Assembly: GCF_028641065.1 (NCBI RefSeq)
Contig: NC_073415.1
Coordinates: forward strand, 8,866,001-8,930,000
DNA from: Leucoraja erinacea
Taxonomy: Eukaryota
DNA: 64,000 nucleotides
Direction: 5' to 3'
Numbering within the stretch: position 1 is the stretch's first letter; each line of letters starts with the position of its first letter. The notes under the pieces were generated by a model. That model was not told where the DNA came from, ran no database searches, and saw only the letters and a program-made list of their open reading frames with translations. Of the stretch, positions 8,422-51,900 are shown piece after piece. The position numbers were made by a program, and so were the translations under genes.

Positions 8422-8766
8422 ACCTTCTCTATCTTTCGGTCTGAAGTAGGGCTCTGACATGAAACCACACAAAATGCTGGAGTAACTCAGCGGGACAATC
8501 TCTGCGTGAAGAAGGGTCTCGACCCGAAACGTCACCCATTCCATCTCTCCAGAGATGCTGCCTGTCCCGCTGAGTTACTCCAGCATTTGGTGTCTACCAG
8601 CATTTGGTGTCTACCGCGGTGTAAACCAGCTTCTGCAGTTCCTTCCTACAAATTCTGATTCAGATTCAGATTCAGATTCAATTTTAATTGTCATTGTCAG
8701 TGTACAGTGACAATGTACAGTGTACCGTGATCTCACGGTCCAGGCAGCCCAAGGGGAGAGAGTAAA

Positions 8767-13377: not shown

Positions 13378-16300
13378 GTCAGTGTTGGTGCGTTTCTTAT
13401 CTGTGGTTGGAGTGGTGTGGAGATGGGGGATAGTGAGCGGAGTTTAGTTTAGAGATACAGCACAGAAACAGGACCGTTGGCCAACTGAGTCAATAGACAA
13501 TAGGTGCAGGAGTAGGCCATTTGGCCCTTGGAGCCAGCACCGCCATTCAATGTGATCATGGCTAATCATCCCCAATCAGTACCCCGTTCCTCCCCGACCA
13601 GCGATCCCCGCACACTAACACTACCCTGCACACACCAGGGACAATTTACATTTATACCAAACCAATTAACCTACAAACCTGTACGTCTTTGGAGTGTGGG
13701 AGGAAACCGATGACCTCGGAGAAAATCTAAACAGGTTGCAGGGAGAATGTACAAACTCCGTACAGACAGCACCCCTAGTCGGGATGGAACCCAGGTCTCT
13801 GGCGCTGTGAGGCAGCAACTCTACTGCTGCACCACCACACCGCCCACATGTCTTTATTCTGCAGGGATTTATCGTGGCTCCCTGCTTTCCCCCAAACACC
13901 ATCACGACTGGTTAGAACACAACAAAAGCTCTTCACTGTACCTCGGTACACGTGACAATAAACTAAACTCACAAAAAAACTGTCCCGCTTGCGATTTGCT
14001 TGTCTATTTCTGCGATCTTGCTCTTCAACTGTCTGCAACAGTGACTTGCCAATAAAACAAAATGTTTCTTGGCTGTAAAGAGCCTTAAAAAAAAAAAAAG
14101 AGTGAAAGGAGCAATGGAAATTTAATGAGTGGAAGCAAGGAACTGCAGATGCTGGTTTCTAAACTTTAGAAAAAGACCCAAAGTGCTGGAGTAACTCAAC
14201 GGGTCAGACAGCATCTTGGAAATTTAAGCATCTTTTAGTTACAATTAACAAAGGCAGGAAAAGTCACCATTGTTACTGATGCTCATGCACGCTGGTGTGT
14301 GGAAAAGTTTGGCAGGGCAGTCACGCTGTACTGGGTTTCGCTGTTTGCTGAAGCTCGATGGACTAAGTCTACAGATGAGGGTGACTAATGTGGAACTGAT
14401 CTAGTGAGTCAGCAACTTTGGGACAGGAGGGAGCAAAGTCTGAGTGGAGGGGGGGGGGGGGAATATATTGCCACATTTTATAAGATGCACTCAAATCACA
14501 AACAGACCAGGTCGTTAATCCAGCTTCAAGGAATCCATGTAAACTGTTTAACGTGGCCCATGGAGTGATATCGTCACCTGCAACTTTGAACTGGAATGGG
14601 TTCAGTCTGAGCTGCGCAGCTGGAGCCTGCTTGTATTCAGTCGGTTAAAGCAACAATTCTTTAATCTGAAGAACAGAATCTAAATGACATGGGTTAGCAC
14701 CAGCTACACCGACATTACTGAANNNNNNNNNNNNNNNNNNNNNNNNNNNNNNNNNNNNNNNNNNNNNNNNNNNNNNNNNNNNNNNNNNNNNNNNNNNNNN
14801 NNNNNNNNNNNNNNNNNNNNNNNNNNNNNNNNNNNNNNNNNNNNNNNNNNNNNNNNNNNNNNNNNNNNNNNNNNNNNNNNNNNNNNNNNNNNNNNNNNNN
14901 NNNNNNNNNNNNNNAACACTCTATAGACGATAGACAATAGGTGCAGGAGTAGGCCATTCGGCCCTTCGAGCCAGCACCGCTATTCAATGTGATCATGGCT
15001 GATCATCCCCAATCAGTACCCCGTTCCTACCTACTCCCCATATCCCTGACTCCGCTATTTTTAAGAGCCCTATCTAGCTCTCTCTTGAAAGCATCCAGAG
15101 AACCTGCCTCCACCGCCCTCTGAAGCAGAGAAGTGAAGTGGCTCACAAACACCAATAGACGTACATGTTTCTAGGCTAATTGGCTTTGGTAAAGATTGTA
15201 AATTGTAAACCCTCGTGTGTGTAGGATAGTATCAGGGTACAGGGATCGCTGGTCGGCGTGGACTAGGTGGGCCGAAGGGCCTGCTTCAGCACTATATGTC
15301 CAAACTAAACCAAACTTAACCTAGCCTGGAGATGCATTGCTCTATGAAGGTGTTGCTGAAACACATGGGTCTGATATGTGTGATGCTCCTACATGCATTT
15401 ATTTACTGACTGTGATCTTAATGAGGAGAATACAATAAATTTGATTTTGAAACAGGATTACATGATTCTGGAATGTTCTTCAAGGTGTTCCAGTTGCCAT
15501 AGTAATGTGTTTTGGCTCTGGGCCATGCTGCACACAGAACACAAGGCCAGCGAGCTTGTTTGCTTGTCATCTGCTGCCTTGGATAGGCTTTGTTTGCCAG
15601 CCTAATGCACTGACTGCAGGTCCAGGGCCTCGTCAGTACGTGACTCCTGCCCATCACTACAGGTGCTTGCCATCCATTCTGGTCTTGTAACATATAGGAA
15701 TGCACACATAGGGTGGTGGGTGTATGGAACAAGCAGCCAGGGGAGGTAGTTGAGGATGGGACTATCCCAACATTTAAGAAACAGTTAGACAGGTACATGG
15801 ATAGGACTGGTTTGGAGGGATATGGGCCAAATGCAGGCAGGTGGGATTAGTGTAGCTGGGACATTGTTGGCCAGTGTGGGCAAGTTGGGTCGAAGGGCCT
15901 GTTTCCGCACTGTATCACTCGATGCCAAGAGGCCTGTGCTGTCCTTTATAGAATAAACCTGAAAGCTTTCTCCTCCTCCAACTTAGCCTTTTTATTGAGG
16001 TTGATGGTCTTTGGCCACTAAGGAAGTTAGGAGGTACACACAAATGCTGGAGAAACTCAGCAGGTGCAGCAGCATCTATGGAGCGAAGGAAATAGGTGAC
16101 GTTTCGGGCCGAAACCCTTCTTCCTTCACTCCATAGATGCTGCACCCGCTGAGTTTCTCTAGCATTTTTGTGTACCTTCGATCTTCCAGCATCTGCAGTT
16201 CCTTCTTGGAAAACAAGGAAGTTGGGAGACCTGGAAGTGCAGCAGTTAGTGCTGCTGTCTCACAATGCCAGAGGCCCTGATTCGCTCATGACTCTGGGTG

Positions 16301-17377
16301 CTCTTTGTGTGGAGTTTGCATGCTCTCCCTGTGACTGCAAAGATTTCAGTTATTAGTTATCCATTTGATGTATATTTTGAAACAATCTTTTAACTTTTCC
16401 TCACAGAGAATAACACGACGATTCCATCTCCCACATTGGCGACACAATACAAAACGCCAGTAAGTCTTTCTCTTTGGTGTTCAATGTGTTTGTGCAGCAG
16501 GGTTTAATGTTGGGAAAGAACTGCAGTTGCTAGATTAAATCAAAGATAGACACAAAAAGCTGGAGTAACTCAGCAGGGCAGGCAGCATCTCTGGCGAGAA
16601 GGAATGACTGATCAGTCGAGACCCTTCTTCAGACTGATCAGTCTGTCTGCCCCGCTGAGTTACCCAAGCATTTTACATCTATCTCGGATTTAATGTTTGC
16701 CATTGCCTCCACCAGAGCAGAGGGTGAAGCTTGGGTCTTCAATGGCGTTTTGGATCAATGTGCCTACAGATGAAGAACGGCCATAACCTCCCACCCTGCT
16801 GTGGCCTCTGACTAATCTCTAGTGATAACATTGGGAATTGGTTGCTGTATTATCAGAGCAGAGTGTTGTGATTGATTGAGGGTGAGGATGGGGGGGGGGG
16901 GCACGTTCCCCCTGTGGCCTGCGTGGGCTTTCTGCGGCATGACAATGGGAGGTGATTGCTGGAATTCTGGAGGAGGAAATCTGGGAAGGTGTAAATAATT
17001 AGTGCCAACATTTGTTGGGGTATGGGGATAAGGGAATGGTATCAAAACGCACACTGTGTGGAGGTGGGGGTGGTATGTATGGGGTAACTGAGGTGGGGTG
17101 GGGTGTGAGGGGTAGCTGTGAGTTGGGATGGTGTGTGAGGAGTAACTGCGTTGCTGACCTGTGCCTCTATGGGCTTTAACAGGTTGCAGCCATCGTGGTT
17201 CCTTGTGTGGTCGGGGGCCTGCTGCTCATCGCCATCATCCTCGCGCTGGGCATCATGAAGCTGAAGGGAAAACGGAGGGAGGAGGGCACGTACAACCCAA
17301 GCCAACTGGAGCAGAACGGAGCACGGGCAGTGCCCCAGCACGGCCTGAAGTTGCCTCCCGAGGAGCGGCTCATCTAG
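13308..17377 (+). CDS. CRB3: Crumbs homolog 3, spliced CDS join(13308..13377,16407..16459,17183..17377), 105 aa
   Basis: Signal peptide MGGLHHLLLITALGAAASGRSFA; short ectodomain with N-glycosylation sequons (ENNTT); TM helix VAAIVVPCVVGGLLLIAIILALGIM; FERM-binding GTYNPS; C-terminal PDZ-binding LPPEERLI. Phases 1 and 0 are consistent. Confidence 0.92.
13590..13838 (-). mobile_element. V-SINE (HE1-like)
   Basis: Reverse-complement copy of the same SINE family. Confidence 0.78.
14723..14914. other. Assembly gap (192 N) inside a CRB3 intron
   Basis: Run of N. Confidence 1.
16407..16459 (+). CDS. CRB3: CRB3 coding exon 2 (ectodomain)
   Basis: Acceptor ttttcctcacag, donor CCA|GTAAGT; encodes (E)NNTTIPSPTLATQYKTP. 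Confidence 0.8.
17183..17377 (+). CDS. CRB3: CRB3 coding exon 3 (TM and cytoplasmic tail)
   Basis: Acceptor tttaacag; contains GTYNPS and ends ERLI then TAG. Confidence 0.95.
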   Translation, partial: VAAIVVPCVVGGLLLIAIILALGIMKLKGKRREEGTYNPSQLEQNGARAVPQHGLKLPPEERLI

Positions 17378-20333
17378 CCAGGCGCCCAGAGACCGCTTGG
17401 CCCACGGAACTGATGCTGGAAACAGTCGGAGCTAAAAAAGTCCAACACTGTCACTTGTTTTCTGTAGGGAATTGTCATTGATTGAGTGTGAGAGAGAGAG
17501 AGGGACTTTGTGATTTCTGCCCTTGTCATGAAGGGCGAGAAGTGAAGGATATCCAGCTGATTATCTGATGGTATTCCCCCTTGACCGTGATATCTTTCCG
17601 ATAGCTGGGGACTACTGGAATGATGGGGTTTCACTGCCCAGCTAGTCTGGGGGGGAATGTCAGTGGCCCAACCACATGAACTGCTGGCTGGCCTAGGATA
17701 ACACCCATGGTGGGACGATAAGGACTCGAGGCATTTCTCTGAGATCTTTAGATGGGACAACTATGCTGAACTGGGGCTGTGTTGCAGACATTCTCTCTTG
17801 AAATTAGAAGCAGACAATAAGCTAACCTCGTAGACCAAGTACCAGCAACGCATCAATCCCACGATCAAAGCGGCAGCGCGGTGAATTGAGAGTCGGCACG
17901 CGCAGCCACTGGTAACAATTGTTAATCCCACTAATACCTGCGTCATCCATGGCCTTGCCTCCCTATTACAGGCAATCTCTCGCTACTCAAGTGGTGTCAA
18001 TGAGCCAACATTGCCTGGTGGAAAGCCATGCATTTCAGCCGTGATCTTTGCATCACCAGGAACCTTCATTGACTCAATGACTTTGTAATTTAAAATAATG
18101 TTAGTTTGTATATTTCTTTTCTAAAGGAATCTGTACTGGACACTAAGACAAAGTGCTGGAGTAACTCAACGGGTCAGACAACGGGCTGAAGTAGGGTCCT
18201 TACCTGAAAGATTCAGAGATGCTGCCTGATCTGCTGAGTTACTCCAGCACTTTGTATCTATTTAAGATACAACAGCATCTGCAATTCCATATAACAACAA
18301 TTACAGCACGGAAACAGACAATCTCGGCCCTACAAGTCCGTGCCGAACATCTTCCTTGTGTCTTCACTGTAATGGAAACTGCTGGTTTATGCCTACTGTG
18401 TATTAATAGTTCAGCAATATTGCAGTATAATTTAGGATGCACAGATTCTGGTGCGGGGTTACCTTATTCCCTGTTGTGCCACTAACGGGCCCTCTTTAGC
18501 CAAAGTGGGTCCTCTAAGGTAGAGATATTAGTCACTGGAAGATGTCAATGGGCGGATGAAAAAGCAATATGAACACTACAGAATGCAGAGATGTATGCGA
18601 GTTCCACATACGTGGGAACGGGTAAGTGTTAATACCTCAATGGGAAATTTTGAATCACTTATTTTTCTGTTGCTGATTTTAATGTAACATTCTTGCACTA
18701 GATAATTATTTATATTTTTAAAGACCTACCGTACATTCAGCAAAGAGACCAGACCCCCTATTCCCTAGATTATAGCTGTTTTCAACGGCAATGTGTAGAT
18801 TTAAATCTCTTCAATGCTCGGAAGTTAATTGCTGTTATGTGAACACTGGACTAGTATGTATCTGGGGCCAAAGACCTCTGATATTAAGTAAACTGCACCT
18901 GTTTATGCCACAATCAAACTGAGATTAAGACGTTCGTACTCTGATATTTTGGTGGCTTATTTTTAAAGTCAGAAATTGTACACGCACTCCATGCTGTTTT
19001 ATTAATACATTTTGTATGCACTTTGTCTAAAAGAAAATCATTTACTATTTTTTATGACTTTATTTTTCTCGATGATTGATTGTTCAAGTGGATAATAGAA
19101 TTTGATATTGTAAACTTGTCATGTGTTCATTCACTTCTTCACCAGGGCTTGTATTTAGGAGAAACTTACTGGTAGCAACTTGATCAGAGCATTCAATGTT
19201 TCATTACATGTAATACCATCAACTCAAGTGCTGACCATTAAGGGGCCAGAATCTAGGTTCAGTTATAATAACTGCCCAATAATATTGCTTCAGCTGAACA
19301 ACCAATGTCGGTTAGTTTAGTGGATCATGAATCAAAAGGTGAGAGTACTGTGCAGAAATTGCTGTGGTTTTCAAAGCTCCACTCTTGTTATAGTCTGGAG
19401 TATGTGTGGTAGAACATAGTTATAACTGGTGCTTGAACTGGAGGCTGGGAAACTACATAAAGCTGGTTCAATATCTACAAGCCCATCCCCTAATCAATTC
19501 TAGATACATCTGAATCAAAAAGAGTTGTAGATGAGGAAGGGCCTCAACCCGAAACGTCACCCATCCCTTCACTTCACAGATGCTGCCTGTCCCTCTGAGT
19601 TACTCCAGCTTTTTGTATCTATCTTGTAGATCGTGGAAATCTGAAATAAAATCCATTGCTGGGTGTAGGCAGCAGGTTTGGTGCCATCAGGAGGGAGAGA
19701 AGATGTTAATGATTCAGGTAAAGGATCTTTCATAAGGAATTGGGGTAGAATTATGCCATTCGGCCCCATCAAGTCTACTCTACCATTCTATCATGGCTGA
19801 TCTATCTCTCCCTCCTAACCCCATTCTCCTGCCTTCTCCCCATAACCCCTGACACCAGAGGTTCTTTCATCAGAACTGGATAAGTTCTCTCTGTCATTTT
19901 GTGTTTTGATTTAAAAAAAAGAAAGAAATATAGACAAGATTGGGGGGGATTTTAACCCTGTGAGCAGGAGCATTAATGGTCCAGCTTACATTCATTTGTT
20001 CGATGTTCGATGTACCTATTCATATCTGTTCCCTCTCCCCCGACTCTCCACCTGAAGAAGGGTCCCGACCTGAAACATCAGCTATTCCTTTTCTCCAGAG
20101 ATGCTGCCTGACCTGCTGAGTTACTCCAGCTTTTTGTGTCTATTGTTGGTGCAAACTAGCATCTGCAGTTCCTTCCTACACAGTCTTTATATTATGTGTG
20201 ATAATGAATTTGCACTCCTTTGTACCGTGGTAATGTATTTAGCTTCCACGTTATAAGTTCACAACTCGTGTTGCAAACCAGTAATAGTCAAACCTTGTTC
20301 GTTAAGAGTGGGGCTGTCTGAATTGCTTCATTA

Positions 20334-20631
20334 AAGCCCGTCCCACTTTCCCGAGTTGACACAAATTCTCCCCTTGATTCAAACTCAGAGAATTACGGTA
20401 ATAGCCAGCCGTAGGTATTCAGGGCTAGTCGTGGACATTTTTCAACATGCTGAAAAAACGTCCCGACTTACCTGATGCCCCGAGTACCTAGGGCTGGCAT
20501 TACGAGCTTCTACAAAATATCTATGGCCTCCTACGGACTCGCTAAGGACTCCTACAGACATTCTCCGAGTTTGAAGCAAGGGGAAAACTCGGGAGAATTT
20601 GTGAGTAACTCAGGAAAGTGGGACAGGGACC
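20334..20631. mobile_element. PIF/Harbinger-type MITE, same family as 35075-35468
   Basis: GTCCCACTTTC ... GAAAGTGGGAC termini; shares the internal CCCCTTGATTCAAACTCAGA. Confidence 0.7.
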
Positions 20632-22446
20632 CAACCCTGTACTTTCATTCTGTTAGATTAAATTGGGGAATCATCATAGGATTGTGGTGGTCTTTGGATA
20701 GAGGAATTGCCGAGAGGATTTGGATAATTACTGGATACTGAAGAGTTCTGTACTATTGTAGTTGGATACATTAGTACCAGTCATGGTTCAGTTTGGTTTA
20801 TTGTCACATGTACCGAGGTACAGTGAAAAGCTTCTGTTGCGTGCTAACCAGTCAGCGGAAAGACAATACTTGATTACAATCAATCCATTTACAGTGTACA
20901 GATAAGATCATAGTTAAAGTAAGAAATGTTGCTGTAGGAATACAGATTTAAGAGTGTGGAGCGATTGTAATGTAACTGTAGATCTACTGTGGCCAGAGGG
21001 CAAATAGTCGCTTGTGTTGGGCAGCCATCTTGGAAGTTGTGGTGTGTAACTATTTCAAACACGAGTTGGGGAAGTGGGGTTGCAAGAAGATATGCAGGCA
21101 ATAGGTCAATAATTATCCCTCACCTACTACTTATTTTAAAGGCCATAGGAGATTTCTCTTGCTGTGTTTCCAACAGTGACCATGGTTGAGGTTTGAAATC
21201 TCCTCAACATGTTAATGCATCATTTCCTCTTTGGTGCAACATTTCCTGTCTGAACGTAACCAGCTAGTTTGCTGCACATTATCCTCACCAGGCCACAGGT
21301 CAGTATTGCAAAATCTGATTATATTTCAAGCTCCACACAAGACATGTCGCTAAATAGAGATTGAAAGAATCCCATTTGGTTCTTTCCCAACTGCCCAATA
21401 AATCTTTCCACTATTTGAAAGCTTTTATTGAATGTCCTTTCTGAGGTTTCATTTCAGAATGCACTCTGTTGCTAAAAATCTCTATCAAAAACCTTTGTGA
21501 TTTTGAACGTGTTAACTCTCCTCTAAAAGGGATCAATTCCAGTTTCCTGTGCCTCTCTCTGGTTAAGTATTCCATTAATTATCGGACTGCAAATTCCTTG
21601 AGTGTGGAGTCTAGTATTGGACACAACCTTCCAGCTGGGTCTCACCAGATATTGGCAACACTTTGGCAGCTTTGCTTTCACACTCAGTTTAAAAAGCCAT
21701 GTCCCCTTATGTATTTTGTAAAGAGTTTTCTTAACACCCTACCATCTTGAAAGGATGCACATCAGAACATGGCTAAAGTTTAATCTTTTAATTTATATTC
21801 TTATTGTATTCTCATTATTAACCTATCTATGCAGTTAAAAATATTTGTTCAATGGCAGCCCTGTGTTTGTGAGGCAGCAGTTTGACAACTGTGGGCTTGT
21901 CTGCTACATGCGGTGCTGGCTCGAAGGGCCGAATGGCCACCTGCACCTATTTTCTATGCCGCCTTCCCAATTCAGCAAATTCCAAATTACACTGGCCTAA
22001 CATCGGAAAGGTCAACTCTCCCCATCCTCCCTCCCTCTGTTTCTATCCCCCTCCCCCTCCCCAGCCACAAACCTCTACCCCCTTCAAAGCCAGGGCTGAA
22101 TACAAAAAGTGTGAGTGAGGAAAAGATAAACGACAAATGAAAAAGCCTCACCTTTCTGCTCATTTTCTCAACATGTTTAGGAAGACATATCAAGGTGATG
22201 AGTGTTGCCTGGACACAAGCATGAGGTCCCATCTTATATGGATGCCATGTCAAGGCTATGAAACAGTCTGGAATGGGTGACGTTTCGGGTCGAGACCAGT
22301 CTGAAGAAGGGTCTCGACCCGAAACGCCACCCATTCCTTCTCTCCAGAAATGCTGCCTGTCCCGCTGAGTTACTCCAGCGTTTTGCGTCTATACTCTGTC
22401 ACTGACCCATCAATGCTGGGGAATAAAATCTAAATTTAATCAGCTC

Positions 22447-23547: not shown

Positions 23548-26500
23548 CTGCAGACACAAAGGCAACATGTGTAGGAAGGAACTGCAAGTGCTGGTTTAAA
23601 CCGAAGGTAGACGCAAAATGCTGAAGTGACTCAGCGGGACAGGCAGCATCTCTGGAGAGAAGGAATGGGTGAAGGATCTCAACCCGAAACGTCACCCATT
23701 CCTTCTCTCCAGAAATGCTGCTTGTCCTGCTGAGTTACTCCAGGTTTTTTGTGTCTACGTCTCAAAGGCAACATATTTGTAAGCTTTATTTCCTCAAGGT
23801 GAGTTTACTTAGTTTAGAAATACGCGGGCATGTGGGTATAGTACAGTCTGAAGAAGGGTTTCGACCTGAAACGTTGCCTATTTCCTTCGCTCCATAGATG
23901 CTGCTGCACCCGCTGAGTTTGACCAGCATTTTTTTGTACCTGTAGCTGAGACATGTTGGGTAGTGTGGGCAAGTTGGGCTGAAGGGCCCGTTTCCACGCT
24001 GTACCACTCTATGACAGCTTCTAATTGAGATTAAACAAGGCCTCACTCACCCTGCGGATGTCCTCCATGGAGTCCATGTTGAAGAAGTCGAGGCTGCGGG
24101 TCCCGTACAGAAGGCCCTTGTCATGAGCTGTCTGAGTGCTGAGGGTATCAAAGATCTCCCCGAGCAGGTCCATATCCTCTATCTGCAGGAGCTCATCACT
24201 GACCGTATCCAGGGAGCTGTCCTGCCCATCTTCATCACAGGTGGACCTGCACAAGTCAAGCAAATGATCAGCATCAATAGTAGGATTGTAAGTTTCAGGA
24301 TGAAGTGTATCACCTCCAGAGGACGTTGGGCAGAGAAGTTACAAACATGGTGTGCAGGGAGGAACTGCAGATGCTGGTTTATATCAAAGATAGACACAAA
24401 ATGCTGGAGTAACTCGGCGGGACAGGCAGCATCTCTGGAGAGAAGGAATGGATGACGTTTCGGGTCAAGACCCTTCTTCAGACTCCTGATAAAGGGTCTT
24501 GACCCGAAACGTCACCTATACCTTTTCCCAAGTACAAAAATGGTAACTAAATCCCCTTAACAGTGGGCCCCATATTCATGTCAATGGAATGGGGAACTAC
24601 AGTCCAAAGGCCATAGGGGTGGGGAAACTGGATGTGCCTCCCACTTGATGTGACAATGATAGGAGAGGAGTCTGCTTCTGTCCCGGGCAATAGGTCAGGA
24701 TGCAAGGGTAACAAAGATGTATGTACTTTTAATCGTTCCAGGTGCGACAGAGGTTTACCTGCATCTCTTCCAACCTCATCTATTGCGTCCGCTGCTCTAG
24801 ATGTCAGCAGATCTATATTGGTGAGACCAAGCGGAGGTTGGGCGATCGTTTCGCCGAACACCTCCGCTCGGTCCGCAATAACCAAGCTGACCTCCCGGTG
24901 GCTCAGCACTTCAACTCCCCCTCCCACTCCGTCTCCGACCTCTCTGTCCTGGGTCTCCTCCATGGCCACAGCCACAGCGAGCAGCACCTCATATTCCGTT
25001 TGGGGAGTCTGCACCCCAGGGGCATGAACATCGAATTCTCCCAATTTTGTTAGTCCTTGCTGTCTCCTCCCCTTCCTCAGTCCCCCTGCTGTCTCCTCCC
25101 ATCCCCCAGCCTTCGGGCTCCTCCTCCTTTTCCCTTTCTTGTCCCCACCCACCCCCGCCCCCCGATCAGTCTGAAGAAGGGTTTCGGCCCGAAACGTTGC
25201 CTATTTCCTTCGCTCCATAGATGCTGCTGCACCCGCTGAGTTTCTCCAGCTTTTTTGTGTGTAACCTTCGATTCTCCAGCATCTGCAGTTCCCTCTTAAA
25301 CAAAGATGTATGTACTTTGGGAAGAGGTGGGTCATCCGGAGGGGAATGGAGGGGAAGATGTTACCTGTCTGTCTCAGTGGCGAGAGATCCATCGATGTTC
25401 GTGTAGTGGCGATTTGGCCGTCGAGGACGAGACTGGAGGAGAAATGGTGAAAATATAAAACGGGGCGGGAAGGGGCTGGAACATACATGTATCTATCTGA
25501 TAGAATAATCCACCTTTACCAATGGCACCTTGTAGCTGGGGAACCACTCACTTAATATATATTTATGGTTTAGTTTAGAGATACAGTGGGGGAACAGCCG
25601 ACCAGCAATCCCACACACACACACAGGATCCTACACACACTTGGGACAATTTACTATTATACCAAGCCAATTAATCTACAAACCTGTATGGATTTGGAGC
25701 ATGGGAGGAAACTGGAGAAAACCCACGCAGTACAAACTCCGCATAGACACAGCGCCCATAGACAGCATTGAACCCAGGTCTCTGGCGCAGTAAGGCCACG
25801 GTGCCACTCTCCATATACAAAACCTCCATAAAGTTAAATTAAATTCCGAGTTCCAGGTACCCAAGGCATTACATGGCCTTTATCTGGGAGCCATATTCTC
25901 AGGTCAATATCTTGTGAACCAGGAATGTTTAAGAAGGAACTGCAGATGCTGGAAAAATCGAAGGTAGACAAAAATGCTGGAGAAACTCAGCGGGTGAGGC
26001 AGCATCTATGGAGCGAAGGAATAGGTGACGGTTCGGGTCGAGACCCGAAACGTCACCTATTCCTTCGCTCCATAGATGCTGCCTCACCCGCTGAGTTTCT
26101 CCAGCATTTTTGTCTACCTTGTGAACCAGGAAAGTTTCCAGCCTGGAAAAATATTCAAGTCCCAGGTTGTCAGGTTGGTGACAAGTTCTTCTCCCACATC
26201 AATCTCAATTTTGGAGGTAATTTGTCATTTTCAGGGGTACAGCTTGCATGGCTCTTTTATCCAATGCCAGATGCCCAGGAATTAAGATAGAGATATGCCA
26301 TTTATTGTCACTACACATGTACAGTGAAACTGAAAGCTGCTCGTACTCAGTGCATACATACAATTTAGCACAAAAAACAAGAAACAGAAAAAACAAAAAA
26401 CAGAAGGGAGATGGGGGGGGGAATAGGTGCACAAATTCTGCGAATACAACTCTTCTGGTTGCCTTGTAGCGAGGGAGATCATGAAGGAGAAATAGCTGAG

Positions 26501-32500: not shown

Positions 32501-32659
32501 TCTTCTTTCTATTTTCAGTCATGCTTTGTAGATTCATAGTAAATCTGATCCGTTTGCATAACATGCAAAACAATGATTTTCACTGAATCTCGGCACACGT
32601 GACAATTGTAAACCAAAACTTCCTAACCTTCTATTCTTGAGCCTCATTGTCTCTCAGGT

Positions 32660-32696
<37 letters not shown>

Positions 32697-38062: not shown

Positions 38063-38093
<31 letters not shown>

Positions 38094-41000
38094 AGTAATA
38101 ACTCACACTCTCCGGTATTGTCGGCAAGCTGTTGACATCGGGGGCAATAAAATAAGAAAGCTGGGGGAAAGAGGAGATAAAACATCATTATATAGATTGC
38201 AGATTGCAGAGTCAGTTCTTACGCCAGTGATTACACTGAAAATGAATCAACACTAGAAGGCTCATCCTCCAACCATGACAAGGTTGACATCAAGGTAATG
38301 AACAGAGATGGAAAGCAACAAGATTGAAATGATCAAAGTTTTGTTATTGTAATATAAATGTCGGTGCATTCCTTTCATTCTTCTATCCTTTCCCCTTCTT
38401 ACCCAACCCCTCTCATTTCCTCTCTCTTGGCTTATAATTCTCTTCCTCTATTACCTCTGTTTTGTTTATTTCCTCGTGGGGGGTGTTATATCATGCAAGG
38501 TTGATCACTTCATTGCAGTGTGGGTGCATTGGTCTGCTCAAAGGGACCTCTGCATCTATCAATTTACAGCAGTAATATCAAGTAGTAATAGCAAGGACTG
38601 CAGATGCTGGTTTATGCCAAAGATTGGCTCAAAGTTCTGGAGGAATAACTCAGCGGGTCAGGCAGCATCTCTGGAGAGATGGAATGGGTGACGTTTCCGG
38701 TCGAGCTCAGTCTGAAGGAGGGTCTCGACCTGAAACGTCACCCATTCCTTCTCTCCAGAGATGCTGCCTGTTCCGCTGAGTTACTCCAGCATTTTGTGTC
38801 TATCTTCAGTGCAAAGCAGCATCTGTAGTTCCTTCCAACACCTCTCCAGGTGATTTCTACAGTCACCAAGAATCCACGTTTAGGATTATAAAGGCCTAAT
38901 TGCAGCTTAAACATCCTGCACACTACTTGTACTAGGTGCTAACACTTGCTGATAAAGGTTGGGTAACAATCTATTCACATTGCAGTTAAAGAATAGGTTA
39001 GTCTGCAGCCAGCAGTGGCACAGGTTGCTAGTTAATTTAGTCAGCATGCAAATGTGGGGTTAGACACATTTAGTTATTGGGTTAATCTGGTCAGTGCCAG
39101 TACGGTGGTGTTGGTCATCGGGTTTTGCCCGACTCACCAGTGGCATACCACTACTGATATCCCTCGTCACATCTTTCAGATATCGTTCCGTCGTAACTCC
39201 CAGCTGTTGGGCCTTGTGAGACAGTATCGTGGGATTATTGTTCATTCTGAAATATCACATTACAACCTTACATTTTAACATTTTTGTACTTTGAAATATT
39301 TTTCCTTTCTTGTTCCCAGCAATGACTCAGTAGGTGGCACTGTTTGAATCAGTTGTCCATTCAAGCAAACTCCAGAGACTTCAGCATATAATCCCGTAGG
39401 AGTATGTAAGAAGGAACTGCAGATGCTGGTTTAAACTGAAGATAGACACAAAAAGCTGGAGTAACTCAGTGGGACAGGCAGCATCTCTGAAGAGAAAGAA
39501 TGGGTGACGTTTCGGGTCTGAAGAAGGGTCACACATTCCTTCTCTCCAGAGATGTTGCCTGCCCCGCTGAGTTACTCCAGCTTTTGGTGTCGATCCTGCA
39601 TGAGTGTGTTGTGCTGATTCAGGTGTGATGATCGGACAAGTGCTCACTCAGGCAGATGCACAAGATCCCATGGCCACAATGTTCATGGGATGTAGACATC
39701 TGTTTAGGGCAGCGCGGTGGGGCAGCGGTAGGTTTGCTGCCTTACAGCACCAGAGACCCGGATACGATCCTGACTACGGGTCCTATCTGTACGTTCTCCC
39801 CCTGACCTGCGTGGGGTTTTTCCAAATGTCGACGAGCTTGGCGAACTTGCGTGTATTTGGCACATATCGCACTAAACCTTTAACTATCCATGTACCTGTC
39901 CAAATGTCTTTCAGCCTATTTCAGGTGTGCTTACCACCGGGATTTATCATGTATGTTGGGCAAGTTAATCTTGTAAATTCAATGATCCGTTTACTTCTTG
40001 GGAATTGTCTGGGAGCATAAACTGGGCATGTATGTGTTATTAGACACAAAACATTTTGGATACTCGGAGGCCGTGAGAGGGATGAATCAGCCAAAGGGAT
40101 CAATGCAGCTTTATTCATTTTAACTTACAAATTCAAGATTGAGTGGAGAGCCTGACTGGGGTGGTGGCTGAGTGTACAGAACCCTCAGGAGCTCTTTCAT
40201 CTCGACGTCCTGCAGCAACAAAAAGGCACATCATAATTCAAGCCAAGTGGGGTTATGCAGTCTATACAAGGAGCAAGCCCCTAAACACGGCATGGCAACA
40301 CAGCAGTAGAGTTGCTGCCCTACAGTGCCAGAGACCCAGCTTCCATCCTGATGACGGGTGCTGGCTATACAGAGTTTATACATCTCGCAGTGATCAAGTG
40401 GGTTTTCCCTGCTGAAACCTCATATATTCTATGTATTTGAAATACCAACCCACTCAAACAATGCAAACTGATGCCTGAAAGCTCTTAAACCCGTCTTGTA
40501 CTCTATTACTTGATGTTCCAAATGCAAAGCAGGCTAAAAGACATCTCAAATTCCTTTGCACACAAGCATAGAAATGAAGTGAAGGAGTAAGGTTCTGGTC
40601 AGCTCCACTGTTTAATACTATTATTGTTCTGATTTTAAGCTCAACTCTGCAGTAATTCATCTCACCACCAGAGGGCCTGTGGCTAGGATAAAGGTAAGGA
40701 AGTAGGGGAGTGGAATCTGAATGAAATCCCTCTGCAATGTATGGAATGGGATGAAGGACATTCTCGAGGATGGTTTAAGTCATGTTGGAATGGATCCTGG
40801 AGTCAGAGGAATTCTGGCAGAGGAGGATCAGCTCAGACTTTACTTTAGACTTTAGAGACACAGCTCAGAAACAGGCCCTTCGGCCCACTGAGTCTGCGTT
40901 GACCAACGATCCCTGTACACCAACAGCATCCTACGCAATAGGGACAATTTTACCAAAGCCAATTAACCTACAAACCCACACATCTTTGGTGTATGGGAGG

Positions 41001-44000
41001 AAACAAGAACACGTGGTCACGGGCACGAGAACAAACAAACTCCGTACAGACAGCACCCGAGGTCGGGATCAAACCAAATGAACTAAATAGTTTCAGTGCA
41101 AACATAGGTTTAAGTTTAGGTTTCAAGTTTGCCTCTTGGTATGCACGAGTTTAGAAGGTTGAGTGGGGACCTCATTGGAACTTACAGAATAATGAAAGAC
41201 AAAGATAGAATGGATGTGGAAAGGTTGTTTCTACTGGTGGTAGAGTCTAGGACCAGAGGTTTATAGGCTCAGAATTAAAGGGCGCTCTTTTAGAAAGGAG
41301 GTGAGGAGGAACTTCTTTAGTCAGAGAGTGGTTAATCTGTGTAACTCTGCCACAGAGGGCTGTGGAGGGCGTTAGTGGATAGTTTTAAGATAGCGATAGA
41401 CAAATTCGTGATTAGAACGGGTGTCAAGGGTTATGGGGAGAAGGCAGGAAAATGGGAGGCTGAGATCAGCCATGATTGAATGGAGGAGTAGACTCAATGG
41501 GCCGAATGGCCTAATTCTACTCCTATAACTTGTGATCTTGCATCAGTGGACGGTACACAGCTAATGGTCATGCTGTTGTGGGGGCTTTCCTCCTGAGATA
41601 TAAAAATCGTCATGGACTAGACAGTTCCAGCTGACATAGGCCTGGTCAGGGAAGGAGTTTACATGTGGGCAAGATGTAACCAGAATAGCTTCTCTTTAGA
41701 GTTAGGCAACCACCATCTCAGGATATTATAGTATCTTCTTCAAGCCTGTTGACCTTTCTGTACACAGTTACTAGCCGTACAGTATCACAATGTGTTCTCC
41801 AATCGGGTTGCAAAAGCTCATTTTCTCTTCTTTCTTACCAACAAAAGTAACTGGATAAGAGATTTTCTCCCTCCTGCTCCACATTTACCACACTATGCAT
41901 TGCAGTGATTTCCTGCTTATTAGATGCAGGTTCTTCCAATTGACTCAACATGTGTAGGATCTTGTACAGGAAAGAACTGCAGATGCTGGTTTAAATCAAA
42001 GATAGACACAAAATGCTGGAGTAACTCAGCGGGACAAGCAGCATCTCTGGAGAGAAGGAATGGGTTGAGGCCCTGCAACAAGTGTAGTTCTTGCCCAGGG
42101 AGTGTGAGCTGGGACAATGTCAAGGAACATACACTCCTTATGTGACCGGTGCTGTACCCAAGTATGTTTGACGGGATAGTAAAGAGATACCTGAACTCTG
42201 TTACTCCTGCTGTTCTTGTCGAGGAGAGTGTTACAATGTGCATTGTAGAGGGAGTTTACTCTGCGTCTAACTTGCATTGTTCCTGCCTGGAGTATTTGAT
42301 GACGCACTTTATTGGCCCTTGGTAAGTAATGAGATCTGTAAAATCAATCTAATTTTACAAACTTTTTGTAAAAATCTATCTATATCAGGCTGCAGATGCA
42401 TGTTATAGGATGACATTTACTCATGTTTGGAAACATAATTAATGTAGTATGGTAATATTTACCTGCCCCTTTGCCAAGTAGTCAGCTATATTGTTTAGGA
42501 GTTTGTAGAAAACTTCAAACCAGGGCAGGAAACTAGAAGACAAATAAAAACAATGGAAAGAAAATGCTGATATATAAAGAAATGAACATGTAGACACAAA
42601 ATGCTGGAGTAACTCAGCGGGACAGGCAGCATCTCTGGAGAGTTTTTTGGGGCAGGATCATTGGTATTGTGGAGTCTCACCAACAGGTGGAGGTGTGAAC
42701 AGCAGTTATTGGAGAAGAAGACAATTAAATATATGTTTTTCTATTTTCTAGAAATGTTTTTGGGGGAACCACAGGGGCGGCTGATACCTCATCAGTGTCA
42801 GTGACCCAGGTTCGATCCTGACCTCGGGTGTTATCGGTGTGGAGTTTGCATGTTTTCACTGTGATCCCGTGGGTTTTCTCCCACGTTGCAGAGATGTGTG
42901 GGTTTGTAGGTTGATTGACCTCTGTAAATTGCCCCGTGTGTGAAGGGAAGATAAATGTAAAATGCTGGAGTAACTCAGCGGGACAGACAGCAACTCTGGA
43001 GACTAGGAATGGGTGACATTTTGGGTCGAGACCCTCCTTCAGACTGCTCAACCCGAAAAATCACCAATTCCTTCTCTCCAGAGATGCTGCCTGTCCCGCT
43101 GAGTTACTAATGTGTAGGAAATAGATGGGGAAAGTGCGATAATGTAGAACAAGTGTGAAAGGATAATTGATAGTTGCCGTGGGCTGAAGGGCCCATTTCC
43201 ATGTTGTATCTCTGAATTAAACGAGGTTGGTTTGAAGATATAATTGAAGTTCTGGGTGCATCTTCCCATCCTACCTGAGGATGCAGATGCAGGTCTTCGA
43301 TCCGCTGGTCAAGCGGCAAAAACCAAACCGCTGATAGCCGTCTATATCTGTCAGCACGAACGTGAACTGCTGGACGGTGGAACTTTCCCACTCCCTGCCA
43401 AACAGAAGCAGAATTTGTAGTTCAGTCAACTTGGTAAACCAGAGCAACTGTAATTCAATAAGCGATTCAGCAGAGGGTTTCGTGAAGATTAATAAAACAT
43501 GTTTCAAATGTTGATATTAAACATTCTTAATTTGCCCAAGTTGGATGCAGAATGAAACAAGTCGCACAAACTGCCTGACCACCCACTTGACACCAGTATT
43601 TACTTCCACACTCACTTCACCAGTGCCTGCCTTCTAGCTAAGTCATTATAAGTTTGCTTGCAGCAGAGTTAGAAAGACACTACGTCAATCATGAGTATGT
43701 CAAATCTTTGCTACCTCCAGGCATTGATTGGGACCCAGCCTTCATCTGAGGTCCCCCTAGTCACCAACAGGCATTCACTCCGAAAGCCATGGATAGATTC
43801 TTACCTTTCCATGTCAAACGGGAAGCAAAACTTCGGCAGGCTCTGTAAAGATTCCTGTGAAATGAGAAATAGGCATTTAGATGTTAAAGTTATTGCTAAG
43901 GAAGAAACTGCAGATGCTGGTCTAAACTGATAGACACAAACTCAGTGGGACGGGCAGCATCTCTGGAGAGAAGGAATGGGTGACGTTTCAGGTCGAGACC

Positions 44001-45897: not shown

Positions 45898-45933
<36 letters not shown>

Positions 45934-48900
45934 TACTGTCTATATCTCTTATTTCCCTTTCCCCTGACTCTCAGTTTGAAGGAAACATCACCCATTCCTT
46001 TTCTCCAGAGATGCTGCCTGACCCGCTGAGTTATTCCAGCATTTTGTGTCTATTTTCAGTCAGTCTTGTTGTGCTCAGGATCAGTAGGCACTTCAAGAGT
46101 TCAGTCTTTCCTTTGAATATCACAGAGGATACTATCAAGGTGTCCTATTTTAGGCCAACATAAACATTAAGCAGTTCCTGTGCTGTACTGTACTATGCTT
46201 TATTTCTCTTGAGCACCATAAGCTGATGCTAGCCACAAAATGTTGGAGTAAGTCAAAGGGACAGGCAGCATCTCTGGATAGAAGGAATGGGTGACGTTTT
46301 GGGTCAAGACCCTTCTTCAGATGGATGGTTTCGTTATAAGAAGTTACTACTTCTAGTAGCAATGTATCTCCGTTCTTTTAGGAGGGGGGGGGGGGGGGGG
46401 GGGGGGGGAACTCCACACATGGTTATAGATGTTAGTCATAAATCCCTGCATGACACCAGCAGAGGCTTGGGCCTGCTTCCGAGCAGACCGGATATGGTTT
46501 TAACGCAACATGAGGTTGATCATTAACTGGAACGGGATTCAGTTTATTTTTCTCATATAAAATGTCTGCTCCACACATCGCATTGCAATCCACTGCCTGA
46601 AAATCCATGGAACCTGCTCCAGTGATCATGTCACCATGCTGGGAGCCGGCCTCTGTTATCTGCAGGGCCTTGTCCTGCCCATATGTTCTACTGAGAAACT
46701 CAACAGGAAACCTGTGGCTTCAGCACGACTTTAAAAAAAACAAAACTTCAGATTTGCAGAAATGAGTCGGTCTTTGTGGCCCACTCCAAATCTTGAAGTC
46801 ACGCTCCCTTGCCTTTTTGTCTTAAATTCTCTCTTCCCTCAATCTCTGCCCATCACCCCAGAGTTGGAATACGGGCACCACAGAGTGGGAGTTCTTCATT
46901 ATCGTGAGAGGGTTGCCAGAAATTTGACCAGAATATGCATTGGTGCCAAATAGGTCCTGTTCACGCACCCACGCGTTCCAGCACAGTGTTCAGCAATGCT
47001 CGCACCTCCTTAGTAAGTAAGTAACTTTATTGGCCAAGTATTCACATACAAGGAATTTGCCTTGGTGCTCTGCCCACAAGTAACAACATGACATACAGTG
47101 ACAGTTACGAATGACTCAGAAAACACTAAACATTAATAATAATAAAACATTAATGATAAAACATTTAGGGTGAACTGTAATGCTGTCAGGGAGCTATAAC
47201 TGAGGGTTTTGCCATCACTTTTATCAAAAGGACATCATGTTCAGTTTTTTTTTTTATAAACTCACACATTTTTAGACAACCAGATTTAAAAGAAACCCGA
47301 GACAGCGGAAACCCATTTCCTGTGGCACTTGGTTAACGGCAGCAGCAGTATATTTGGTCTATTCTACTTATCTACAGGACCCATGTTTTTAAAATGTGTT
47401 GTGTTTTGAGCCCGTCTAGTGATGTTACAGTCTGATCGTCTGATCCTAACTGATCTCAGATGAAATAGATTCAAGGCTTGGTTAGTATCTGGATGGAAGA
47501 CTGCACTGAAATAGTAGATATCTATCACCAATTCCACTGTGCCCGAGTATTACGCCTATACATTGTAGTATCTAAGCTGCCCAAAATTGTTGTCGTCACC
47601 TTGGGATTGTCATTGTTCAATCCAGCTTCAGACAGTTTAATTATGATGAAATCGTAAATTGAGTTGGCAATGTGCTGTAGGAAGGAACTGCAGATGCTGG
47701 CATCTCTGGATAACAGAAATTGGTGATGTTTCAGGACTTTAAACGTCACCCATTCCTTCTCTCCAGAGATGCAGCCTGTCCCGCTGAGTTACTCCAGCAT
47801 TTTGTGCCCATCTTTGGTAATGTGGTGTTCTGAATATTGAAGACTGCAGGCCCCTGAGCCGAGTTGTATTCCAAATTTCACTTTCTCTCGGATCCCATGG
47901 AGTTTTACTTTACTGATGATTTGCCAAATAGAACTTTGCAAAAGCCATACCATACCTACAAATAAATTGTGCAAGTTTACCCTTGATTTTGATGGCAGCA
48001 TAGTTGATTTGAATTCTAACTTTCTCCTCTTTGAGTGCACCCTTAGCCCTGTTCCTCTGGCATTAATTTACTTCCAAATGATTTATAGAGTCATAGAGCA
48101 AGATGCCCCCCTCTATGCTGGATTTCTGAATCTTCTCCCTACTTTATTCTTACTAACAAAGTGCATGACCGCACACATTGCTGTGCCGTGTTACATTTGC
48201 CCTTCTTTAGCCACTTTCCAGACCTGTCTAAGTCCCTCTGCAGGCTTCCTCCACACTACCTGCCCCATCACCTGCCCTTGGAGTGCATGCATTCAGTGGC
48301 GGACTGGCCAGGGTGTCAGCTTGCCCGATGGCAAGTGGGCCCCTGGTGAAGTGATAGCAAGTGGGCCCCTGTTAAATGATATCATTGTAGTTGTGTGTGG
48401 GGCCCCCTTTGTCTTCTGGCAACCAATATTTTTAGACCCAGTCCGCCACTCGGTGCATTCACTCCAGAATTATATCAAAGGGGTTAAATTATACTTTGTA
48501 TTCCCTCGGGTTTAGAAAACTGAAGGATGGTTCAATTCTGAAGTTTCAAAATGAGAAAAAGGGTTCAGTAGAGTCAACACAGAAACTATATCCTCTAATG
48601 AGATGTATAAAAATAGGAACTATATCTTAATTATGAAACTACTGAATCACCCATCATAGTTCTCCTGTCAGGACCAGTTTCATCTTGCACGGCTAATGGC
48701 AGGTATCATATATACACATGGAAGATAGTGAAAAATCTGTAACACTCTCTCATAGGCAATTGGAGCTTTCAAAACAATGAACAATAGACCTACAAGAAGG
48801 AACTACAGATGCTGGTTTACACTGAAGATGGACACAAAAAGCTGGAGTAAGTCAGCGGGACATGCAGAATCTCTGGAGTGACGTTTCGGGTCGAGACCTT

Positions 48901-51900
48901 TCTTCAGACTAAATAGACACTATAGATCTATGTCCGTTACATACATTGTTTCACTGGATCAAAGGCAAGAAAATAGTTGATGCAATGACCCACTGGATCC
49001 CAGTCTGATTGTAGTTCTGAGAGGCCACATCCTGCTCTAATTTATGAAAAAGTTCAGAGACGGAGAAACTTTGTGAAGATGGACCCTGTAAGATCAAGTG
49101 GTTGCTATCTAGCTCATGAATATATTCAAGAATCAACTTGAGAACAACTTTTTTATTCTTCCTTCAGGTAAATATTTTCTACACTTACCAACATCTGTTG
49201 ATTTAGGACACAAGGCTTCGATAAACCATTCAAATGTCCTATCAGGGTTCTCTCTGAAAATAAAGAAAAGGAAATAGAACATTAATAATTCGTAGTTTCA
49301 TTGGAAAGGGTTTATTCCCTTTCCTGAAGTATTAACTAAAACTGGGCAGAAACTCCCAACTCCACAATAACATAGTTTCTTGACTATTTTTCATGTACCT
49401 AGGAGATACTTTAACATATAGACACACATGTTCATATAGGCTTTAGTTTAGTTTATTGCCACGTGTACTGAGGTAGAGTGAAAAGGTTTTGTTGCGTGCT
49501 AACCAGTCAGCGGAAAGACAATACATGATTACAATCGAGCCATTCATAGTGTACAGATACATGATGAGGGAATAACGTTTAGTGCCAAGTAAGGCCAGCA
49601 AAGTCCGATCAAGGATAGTCAGAGGGTCACCAATGAGGTTGATAGTATTTCAGGAATTCTCTCTAGTTGATAGTAATCAGTTTGCATACTGCACCATAGT
49701 GCAAATTAAAAAATCAAGTAAGTCTTGGCTTTCCAACAAATCCCTTCTGCTTTCTTTCAACCCAGCTCCTCCCACTCTGTCCACTCTTGTGCCTCTGCTG
49801 CTGGAAGCATGGTCAATAGTCAATAGTCAGATTTATTTGTCACATACACAATGAAATGCAGTGAAATGAACTTGCCAGCAACGGTACAATAAAAAAGAAT
49901 GCACAATAAAACATTTAAAACAAAACATCCACCACAGCATTCATCACTGTGGTGGAAGCCACGAAGTTTAGTCAGTCCTCCTCCATTTTTCCCCGTGGTC
50001 AGGACCATTGAATGCTCTTTAAGGAGTATTTCCACCCTCTTAGAAACAACCCTCATAGTCCCCTCCTTTAAAACTCCAGTCACCGAACCACTACATCAAC
50101 TTTCTGTTTATCCTTTAGATTGGTGAATCTGTTTCACAACTCTCTCTTTTTATCAGTGATTTATGATGGGTTCCACACTCCATGTTGACCATACCATAGA
50201 AAACCTGAACCTCTTCCCATGCTGCTTCTCAATGAAGGTGGACTAACTATAATGGCATAAAGCTCACATTGTCATTGATTAGGGCGATGGCAGGTAATGG
50301 TGGATTTTAATATTGGCCTGCGTCTGGCTGGAGTAAGAGATAGCAATAATAGACACAAAGTGCTGGAGTAACTCAGCGGGACTGACAGCATCTCTGGAGA
50401 GAAGGAATGGATGATGTTTCAGGTCGGGATCCTCTCCTTCTCTCCAGAGATGCTGCCTGTCCCACTGAACTACTCCACCATTTTGTGTCTATCTTCGGTT
50501 TAAACCAGCATCTGCAGTTCCTTCCTACACATAAGAGATGGCAAAGGTACACATCCTGAAACTGAATTGGTGATTGGGCTGAAACTGAGTTGGTAGTTCC
50601 AGAAATGCTGTAGTTATTGATACATATCTAGTGTGGTGGTTTTAGCTTGACTAGTTTAATTTAGTTTAGTTTAGTGATGCAGCGCGGAAAAAGGCCCTTC
50701 GGCCCGACACTATCCTGCATACACTAGGCACAACTTCACCATTCTACTCCATTAAAGGTGTCAGATCTTTACTTTGCTCCATTGACATCTAGTCTTTTTC
50801 TCAAACCACATCCCGTGTATCCTTGCTTTTAAAAATGGCTTTTGGATCTTAAAAAGGCCTCTTCTTTATCACCCACGTATGCAAACCACTCACCCTTTCG
50901 TAAGGGGCCTTAGCTAAAGTTTGCATATGTTTGTTTAAAAGATACAATTTGAGGTTTGAACACAATTAATTGAAATTGCATGCTTTTGAAAATGTATTAA
51001 AAAGCAGAGGTAGGAAATGGGAACTGAACAGGTACACATGTCAAGAAAAGGAATAAAGCTTTACATGGAACCACAGAAAGAGAAGTGAAAGGAAATGCAC
51101 AGATGCAAAAGGGCACACCTGGAAACTTAGGTAGGGGATTGAACAAAAGTACAGGAGCAAATAAAAAAGAATTGATCGTATGTGGAAATAGGAACTGCAG
51201 ATGCTGGTAAAAGATTGGATCAAGAAAGAAACAAAGACAAAGATGGTTTCAGTACACTGACCATCTGTACCACAGTTCATTCAGATCGAGTGGTACAGCA
51301 CGGAAACAGACCATTCAGCCCAACTTGCCCACATCTACCCTCTTTTGGTCCATATCCCTCCAAACTTGTCCTATCCATGTAGCTGTCTGTTTCATAAACG
51401 TTGGGATAGACCCAGCCTCAACTACCTCTTCTGGCAGCTTGTTCCATACCCCCATCACCCTTTGTATGAAAAAGTTACCCCTCAGATTCCTATTAAATCT
51501 TTTTCCCTTCACCTTCAACCTATGTCCTCTGGTCCTTGATTCACCTAGTCTGGGCAAGAGACATAGTCTGGTCCTTGATTCACCTAGTCTGGGCGAGAGA
51601 CTGTGCATCTATTCCTCTCATGATCCTCTGATTTTGTCACCATAGCTGCTGAGTAGATTTAGCATGAGAATTCAAATTGGAATCCGAACCAGGACTTGTC
51701 TAATTGATACAGAAACATCTCATGGAACTTCAACTGGAAGAAAAACTTATTAACTCTGTAAAAGACACAATTCAAGAAACAAAGCTTAATAAACAGAGAG
51801 GGTAGATCACTTGTAGAAATCTCTTCAATGGAATGTCTTTATTAAAAGCTGTGATGATTAGCACAACATTGTGCTGGTTGCCAGCAATTTGGAAAAAAAC

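Follow-up and report, generated by a model that had tools for sequence, protein, structure and literature searches.

In a 64,000-nucleotide stretch of the genome of the skate Leucoraja erinacea (RefSeq assembly GCF_028641065.1, contig NC_073415.1, positions 8,866,001 to 8,930,000, forward strand; hereafter the window), a short repeat with a hammerhead-like motif occurs again and again as head-to-head pairs, ie as hairpins. The question raised by this locus is how such hairpins are built, and on what template. The original prediction described them as a Penelope-derived family inserting as single hairpin units, each formed from a short non-coding RNA whose end may be set by the ribozyme. The hairpins do exist, and half of them or more are single insertions. 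The reading we favour, with a probability of about 0.6, is that each hairpin is one stub-sized insertion of an endonuclease-bearing (EN+) Penelope-like element (PLE), made by twin priming at two reverse transcriptase (RT) start sites on uncut RNA, the products being joined by microhomology.

A hidden Markov model (HMM) was trained on 24 copies of the repeat from the window and recognised 71 fragments of one sequence of about 135 nt, which together cover 10% of the window. In the numbering of the model the first hammerhead box occupies positions 18-24, helix II 26-37 and the second box 38-45, and the predicted cut falls between 45 and 46; the repeat has a tail-less end at about 112 and a tail at 113-148. 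There are two subfamilies, A, to which the majority of copies belong, and B. Among neighbouring copies no more than 70 nt apart, 20 pairs are head to head, one is tail to tail and four run in the same direction (20 versus 1, p ~1e-5).

It is nearly certain that the repeat is the pseudo-long terminal repeat (pLTR) of an EN+ PLE of a cartilaginous fish. In two long, 5'-truncated copies (7953-8436 and 24710-25318) the repeat is immediately preceded by the end of a GIY-YIG endonuclease; their scores against Pfam PF01541 are 24.2 and 20.9 bits, respectively above and below the cut-off of 22.6. A protein search for longer relatives gave 22 hits among 93 candidates, with a best identity of 73%, and the named relatives come from skate, sharks and rays. 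In two of them, P0002 and P0021, an RT is followed by GIY-YIG in one protein. The endonuclease aligns with the relatives over 105 amino acids at 50-76%, and C21, C24, H43 and H59 are invariant in all eight aligned rows; in our own assignment, made from the alignment, these four residues would match the CCHH motif named for the EN+ PLE endonuclease (PMC8557442). The tail end is used alone by 24710-25318 and the tail-less end alone by 7953-8436, within exact target-site duplications (TSDs) of 20 and 14 bp; at a score of at least 13, the null gave 5 in 756. Contigs of organisms C and D join 24709 to 25299 (two of four runs), ie they hold the empty site of the larger copy, while run X1 carries the copy and run X3 gives no decision on its presence. 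The assignment is made because of these coding copies, the RT plus GIY-YIG relatives, the invariant residues, the exact TSDs and the empty site, and the Penelope origin first proposed is thereby upheld. Six of seven relatives also have a C-x4-C-x2-C motif in the linker, decayed in P0004, and the window copies begin downstream of that linker. A cysteine motif in this position is described as a mark of Neptune and Nematis (PMC8557442), and the element is probably of the Neptune type.

Some further copies are of interest in their own right. A third pLTR variant is found at 2180-2316 (+) and 36916-37050 (-), with differing upstream sequence that is common to both over 47 nt. Subfamily A copies at 55330-55827, 45800-46060, 26556-26860 and 410-600 have up to about 250 nt of common non-coding upstream sequence, in which no coding part was found, and copies at 55594 and 55736 form a direct tandem of subfamily A.

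The six direct repeats originally placed around the best examples are present, with lengths of 11-15 bp, 0-1 mismatch and copies starting 156-207 bp apart. The seven further palindromes listed with them all exist, although only two (5381..5598 and 47664..47828) have a significant TSD. In a search anchored at the outer ends, a TSD score of at least 9 was reached at 10 of the 20 head-to-head loci, compared with 3 of 380 swapped-flank controls; one direct repeat per palindrome is therefore true of half of the loci and not of the other ten. The pair at 2019-2316, with a 64-nt spacer and a TSD score of 6, is one of the 20 loci but not one of the 19 whose junctions were fitted, as described below. 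At nine of the ten TSD loci the insert contains no 7-mer of the TSD, and the sole match falls in the element's own tail. Thus one TSD encloses the pair and none lies at its centre, as insertion in one unit demands. The TSD overlaps the element end by 1-5 nt in many cases, at either end (read by eye), and is mildly AT-rich (GC 0.39 versus 0.45). Most solo stubs have no detectable TSD, a score of at least 7 being seen for 6 of 28 against 12 of 300 controls. None of the 11 head-to-head pairs separated by longer distances, within 4 kb, had a TSD above score 7, and so there was no sign of a long insert whose inverted ends lie far apart.

The two arms of a hairpin are not equivalent. Among the 15 hairpins with two arms that extend to the end region, 14 have the 36-nt tail on exactly one arm (p=0.0005, tested against one half); four further hairpins, with one arm ending early, were left out of this score. 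The tail is present in 13 of 28 solo copies, and the comparison leads us to conclude that the two ends of a hairpin are coupled. The two hairpins of type B each have B sequence in left and right arm alike, with 5 and 7 shared changes. For subfamily A, divergence is 13.7% between arms of the same hairpin and 15.0% between arms of different ones (p=0.19), and neither shared private changes nor homogenisation of the arms reached significance (p=0.14 and 0.19). Since these arms differ about equally within and between hairpins, there is no sign of selection for arm pairing, such as a host function might impose.

All 19 fitted junctions are distinct, in agreement with the differing junctions first reported; the hairpin is formed afresh at each site. 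Four of the 19 were adjusted by eye, for an internal deletion or an ambiguity, before the arm limits were counted. A turn near the hammerhead motif, as originally described, holds for the deeper arm but not for the other, which stops up to 40 nt downstream of the motif; either arm can be the deeper one. The hairpin at 25911..26132 turns inside helix II with 5 nt of microhomology, and the centre of that at 16500..16697 is a perfect 16-bp palindrome with zero loop, both of its arms reaching consensus position 13. Of 38 arm limits, just two are found at 43-49, ie no further than 3 nt from the predicted cut (p=0.88 against a uniform distribution over 11-85), and 11 lie at 11-19, just upstream of the motif (p=0.004, same null). 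Similarly, 10 of 28 solo copies start at 13-19 without upstream homology. When public runs X1, X7 and X23 were compared with the long B copy, the leading rows of 5' loose ends were at 25168/25169 (consensus 15/16), with flanks that differ from one another, and no loose 5' end at the cut site (25199) was found among the 24 rows listed.

Sequence from both sides of the predicted cut is held by 18 of the 19 hairpins. There are 12 intact hammerhead cores in the window, with the core boxes conserved in all 12; the only hairpin containing one is 24340..24544. Helix I in these cores has 2 bp in nine, 3 bp in one and 0-1 bp in two. An Rfam search at E<=1 returned no hammerhead family and 20 sub-threshold matches, mostly to microRNA-like hairpins, which were treated as chance. 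No pile-up of RNA read ends was observed on the long copy in two pooled, fragmented RNA runs that would hardly reveal one. Hammerheads of this minimal type are reported to be inactive as monomers in vitro (PMC4209133). The idea of ends set by the ribozyme is not supported by the arm limits (2/38 at the cut), by the read-through (18/19) or by a helix I of 2 bp or less in 11 of 12 cores. Because most limits miss the cut, nearly all hairpins read through it, minimal hammerheads were inactive as monomers in vitro and the anole element described below used uncut RNA, the template of the hairpins is concluded to be mostly uncut.

On the twin-priming reading, the target would be nicked on both strands at staggered positions 10-17 nt apart, and both nicked strands would prime RT on uncut element RNA, one at 148 and the other at 112, 36 nt away. 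Both complementary DNAs (cDNAs) would run towards position 13-16 or halt earlier, and the two short ends would be joined head to head by 0-5 nt of microhomology. That two priming events occur when a hairpin forms is inferred by analogy with the PLE of the anole, whose protein nicks and extends both target strands in vitro, and whose RT starts at two internal sites bounding the tail, ribozyme cleavage not being required (PMC11167929). In the skate the tail-less end behaves as a priming site, because it is used alone with a TSD. Two primers are favoured over a tail-first fold-back since either arm may be the deeper and hairpin 16500..16697 has no loop. The preferred stop, at consensus 13-16, would correspond to the 5' end of the RNA; positions 13-19 match the initiator consensus. 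In D. virilis the Penelope transcript starts within the upstream pLTR (PMC2377424). Given the initiator-like match and this precedent, the stop at 13-16/13-19 is likely to be the RNA's 5' end. Priming in the upstream pLTR would leave only about 100-135 nt to copy and yield a stub, whereas priming in the downstream pLTR would yield a long coding copy; an excess of stubs could therefore arise without a separate RNA. The hairpins would be dead ends. An extension of this scheme, which we consider unlikely, is that the stubs, starting at the transcription start and holding both priming sites, are re-mobilised in trans as solo stub or hairpin, making a SINE-like (short interspersed element) self-renewing family of pLTRs. 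In such a family the two coupled ends would record a cycle of twin priming, with a PLE dimer copying uncut RNA onto both target strands, and would offer a natural record, at the scale of the genome, of the way in which Penelope elements make their inverted repeats.

Several observations weigh against this reading. Part of the excess at 11-19 follows from how a hairpin was defined, and the choice of a uniform null over 11-85 was ours. The junctions at loci 5395, 27287, 39404 and 16511 are ambiguous or internally deleted, and hairpin centres can undergo deletion after insertion. Some recurrent joints among the top rows listed from public contigs (consensus ~49-52 with 15-17) are only 3-6 nt from the cut. 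Ten of the 20 head-to-head loci have no significant TSD, and one locus has two tails. Coding sequence is linked to subfamily B only and most hairpins are subfamily A, for which no coding part was linked within the window; nor does the window contain a full-length element or a 5' pLTR-ORF (open reading frame) junction. No RNA 5' end was seen in the public RNA runs, which are pooled and fragmented and say little on RNA ends, and no empty site for any hairpin appeared among the 32 rows listed of more than 700,000. For two cDNAs to overlap, either strand displacement or a second RNA would be required. The analogue studied in vitro belongs to the Poseidon clade and not to Neptune. Finally, the finished insert does not allow a full distinction between twin priming and the folding back of a single cDNA, as both give equal outer ends and microhomology at the junction.

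That second route, in which the same element obtains its second arm by self-priming, would have one cDNA (or an antisense RNA) fold back at the structured hammerhead region and be copied, after which the endonuclease would resolve the intermediate, leaving a tail on one side; we regard it as possible but rather unlikely. It would account for the 0-5 nt of microhomology, for the turn of the hairpin at 25925 exactly on helix II and for recurrent joints of the purine box (~20-28) with its complement (~51-57) at 16031 and 50341, similar coordinates being seen among the top rows listed from public contigs. Self-priming on an antisense template has been proposed in PMC3846280, and resolution by the endonuclease put forward in PMC8557442. 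It does not readily explain a tail-less end that is also used alone with a TSD, a deeper arm that can be either one or the loopless hairpin at 16511, and two-site, two-strand priming has been seen in vitro for a related element (PMC11167929). The original proposal, a non-autonomous PLE/ribozyme system whose special-purpose short non-coding RNA is cut to length by the hammerhead and moved in trans, is quite unlikely. Stubs are much more numerous than coding copies, with a depth of the core ~5- to 35-fold that of GIY-YIG by run and bin (not a copy number), the core boxes are conserved in 12 copies, subfamily A has no linked coding part in the window and tandem non-autonomous PLE derivatives exist elsewhere (bioRxiv 2026.07.22.740005), all of which such an RNA would accommodate. 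Yet all but 2 of the 38 ends miss the cut site, 18 of 19 hairpins read through it, loose 5' ends at 25199 are lacking among the 24 rows, helix I is at most 2 bp in 11 of 12 cores, such hammerheads are reported to be inactive as monomers in vitro (PMC4209133) and no tandem array of the unit was seen. Nor is a separate RNA needed, because the long coding copies use the same two ends.

If a hairpin were itself the master element, transcribed and re-inserted whole, the recurrence of some joint coordinates in public contigs would follow; that is very unlikely, since no master is seen when all 19 junctions in the window differ, and those joints, which lie on two complementary segments within the repeat, are not identical, shifting by 1-3 nt and differing in the letters inserted. 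Where 71 fragments crowd into 64 kb, two separate insertions might be expected to end up next to each other, and the subfamily A arms are no more alike within than between hairpins. Against this stand the single TSD around the pair at 10 of 20 loci with none at the centre, the bias of 20 head-to-head to one tail-to-tail, the asymmetry of the tail (14/15) and the pairing of B with B in both cases, which make chance neighbours highly improbable. The hairpins are short, very abundant and stable (for instance -158 kcal/mol for 25926-26120 against -53 for base shuffles), as in a miniature inverted-repeat transposable element (MITE) moved by a DNA transposase, but we give that origin practically no credence. 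The unequal ends (36-nt tail, 14/15) leave no matching terminal inverted repeats, TSDs of 10-17 bp have no fixed length, there are 19 different centres, solo copies are 5'-truncated and the repeat is linked directly to a GIY-YIG ORF; the coding copies contradict a DNA-transposon origin.

In L1 twin priming, the element RNA is copied from two target ends that serve as primers; the resulting inversion lies inside one TSD and its two pieces do not overlap, so no hairpin results. The skate arms differ in that they copy the same stretch from two fixed sites. Among PLEs, an inverted 5'-truncated pLTR with a one-sided tail of 30-40 bp and one TSD is a published pattern (PMC3846280, PMC8557442, PMC8969392). 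Pen2a of Adineta (PMC3846280; overview in PMC8557442) likewise has a head-to-head inverted 5'-truncated copy, a one-sided tail (36 nt here), one TSD and palindromes at the inverted junction. Compared with Pen2a as described there, the skate inserts measure just 145-195 bp and lack an ORF between their arms, their TSDs are 10-17 bp rather than the 8-10 of the Adineta cases, and their density is very high, at a tenth of the window. The Poseidon element of Anolis carolinensis, PAc (PMC11167929), shares the two tail-bounding sites, the hammerhead in the pLTR and the uncut RNA template, with both strands extended in vitro; it differs in clade, the relatives of the skate element carrying the Neptune-type cysteine linker, and the skate TSDs are only mildly AT-rich. 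The minimal type I hammerheads of metazoan PLEs (PMC4209133) have the same core boxes, the extra base before helix II, the G-C closing pair and no helix III with a palindromic 4-mer. Helix I is about 2 bp here, compared with 4-5 bp in Schistosoma and 2 bp in D. virilis, and helix II is 4-5 bp here. Opposite-strand pairs of the motif were noted in Schistosoma by the same paper; of the 12 intact cores here, one falls in a hairpin. Its supplements may list a skate motif.

Non-LTR retrozymes (bioRxiv 10.64898/2026.07.22.740005), reported in one chondrichthyan, are also short, non-coding, PLE-derived and hammerhead-bearing. They form head-to-tail arrays with complete ribozymes, whereas the skate hairpins are head to head with a junction that usually breaks the motif. 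No head-to-tail array with complete hammerheads was present among 27 rows from Tandem Repeats Finder (TRF), and same-direction neighbours number 4 against 20 head to head. A literature search, which covered few subscription journals and neither supplements nor Dfam or Repbase, found no account of the family in cartilaginous fishes, nor of PLE twin priming. Nevertheless, earlier publications already describe the architecture, the hammerhead and the two start sites, and the claim of an undescribed system is not supported, given the architecture in PMC3846280, PMC8557442 and PMC11167929. The building of tandem and inverted PLE ends is described as an open question in PMC8557442. The stubs, being the smallest possible products and very abundant in this fish, each record two start and two stop points, and their value is mainly as abundant natural material for that mechanistic question. 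Counting them across the genome could distinguish between twin priming and self-priming and show where the RNA starts, with no bench work needed. The coordinates of the individual hairpins and long copies are given in Table 1.

Table 1. Head-to-head hairpins and 5'-truncated long copies of the element in the window.
Feature	Coordinates	Strand	TSD	Remarks
Hairpin, subfamily B both arms	16020..16228	.	14 bp (16020-16033 / 16215-16228)	tail on right arm, left without
Hairpin, subfamily A	23557..23774	.	12 bp, exact	tail on left arm; within pyrimidine tract before probable minus-strand exon
Hairpin, most perfect, B-type both arms	25911..26132	.	15 bp, exact	79-nt arms, 99% complementary
Hairpin, subfamily A	27274..27493	.	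13 bp, 1 mismatch	tail on left arm
Hairpin, left arm short	33792..33958	.	11 bp, exact	tail on right arm
Hairpin	50334..50544	.	13 bp, 1 mismatch	tail on right arm
Hairpin	5381..5598	.	10 bp, exact	tail on left arm
Hairpin	16500..16697	.	12 bp, 1 mismatch	absent from the original list
Hairpin	24340..24544	.	12 bp, 1 mismatch	absent from the original list; right arm ends early (consensus ~64)
Hairpin, tail arm internally deleted	47664..47828	.	15 bp, 2 mismatches	
Hairpin	6455..6585	.	none significant	
Hairpin	8467..8650	.	none significant	internal duplication of 17 bp
Hairpin	11253..11402	.	none significant	only hairpin with both arms stopping downstream of the cut site
Hairpin, decayed	18148..18288	.	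none significant	
Hairpin, left arm very short	22270..22399	.	none significant	
Hairpin	38589..38841	.	none found	tails on both arms (exception)
Hairpin	39405..39595	.	possible decayed TSD, 17 bp, 4 mismatches, not significant	
Hairpin	42947..43108	.	none significant	neither arm tailed; right arm ends early
Hairpin, right arm short	53897..54022	.	none significant	
Parent copy, 5'-truncated, subfamily B	24710..25318	+	20 bp, exact	GIY-YIG C-terminus 24733-25047, pyrimidine tract, pLTR with hammerhead core 25171-25198, tail
Parent copy, 5'-truncated, subfamily B	7953..8436	+	14 bp, exact	GIY-YIG fragment plus pLTR ending without tail

At 22270, 23557, 24351 and 27274 (3-4 of 4 runs per side tested) and at 25911 (1 of 4), contigs of relatives reach into the arms by about 15-45 nt. 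On this evidence these five hairpins appear to be common to related species and older than the species splits. The arms at 25911-26132 are 99% complementary, and yet a contig of organism D, with a flank about 5% divergent, runs 25 nt into the arm; arm-to-arm conversion has perhaps taken place there, at one locus and without significance.

The hairpins fold strongly in silico, as expected of any palindrome. The suggestion that they fill pre-mRNAs with double-stranded RNA gained no support from the RNA runs, which say little on editing. No RNA run was listed for 21500-28200, and on the long copy A>G and T>C changes were no more frequent than in the DNA runs, a comparison with little bearing on editing as the libraries were pooled and fragmented and the reference was not a hairpin. 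Over the coding part at 24733-25160, reads of single-cell RNA run X21 show a strong bias to one strand (~2- to 27-fold, depending on the bin) and the bulk run X23 is balanced; the bias in X21, whose mates are unlabelled, bears on the antisense-template idea of PMC3846280.

In the region 22447-23568 (-), a probable large exon with a 366-amino-acid open frame begins at 23547. Hairpin 23557 was inserted 10-20 nt upstream of its AG, and the duplicated target and the pyrimidine-rich tail lie between hairpin and acceptor. Pfam gave no match for this exon, and its best Atlas lead, which is a lead only, is to tankyrase-binding / KIAA1210-like low-complexity proteins (score 0.86).

Other features of the window include an assembly gap of 192 bases at 14723-14914 and inverted pairs of other repeat families, separate from the PLE, at 4037-4274, 10668-10853, 20349-20604 and 33486-33739. 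A 163-bp stretch at 26279-26441 is missing from organism D and is another lineage-specific insertion. An open frame of 454 amino acids at 56032-57396 (-) encodes an RT of the LINE (long interspersed element) type, the family being judged by eye.

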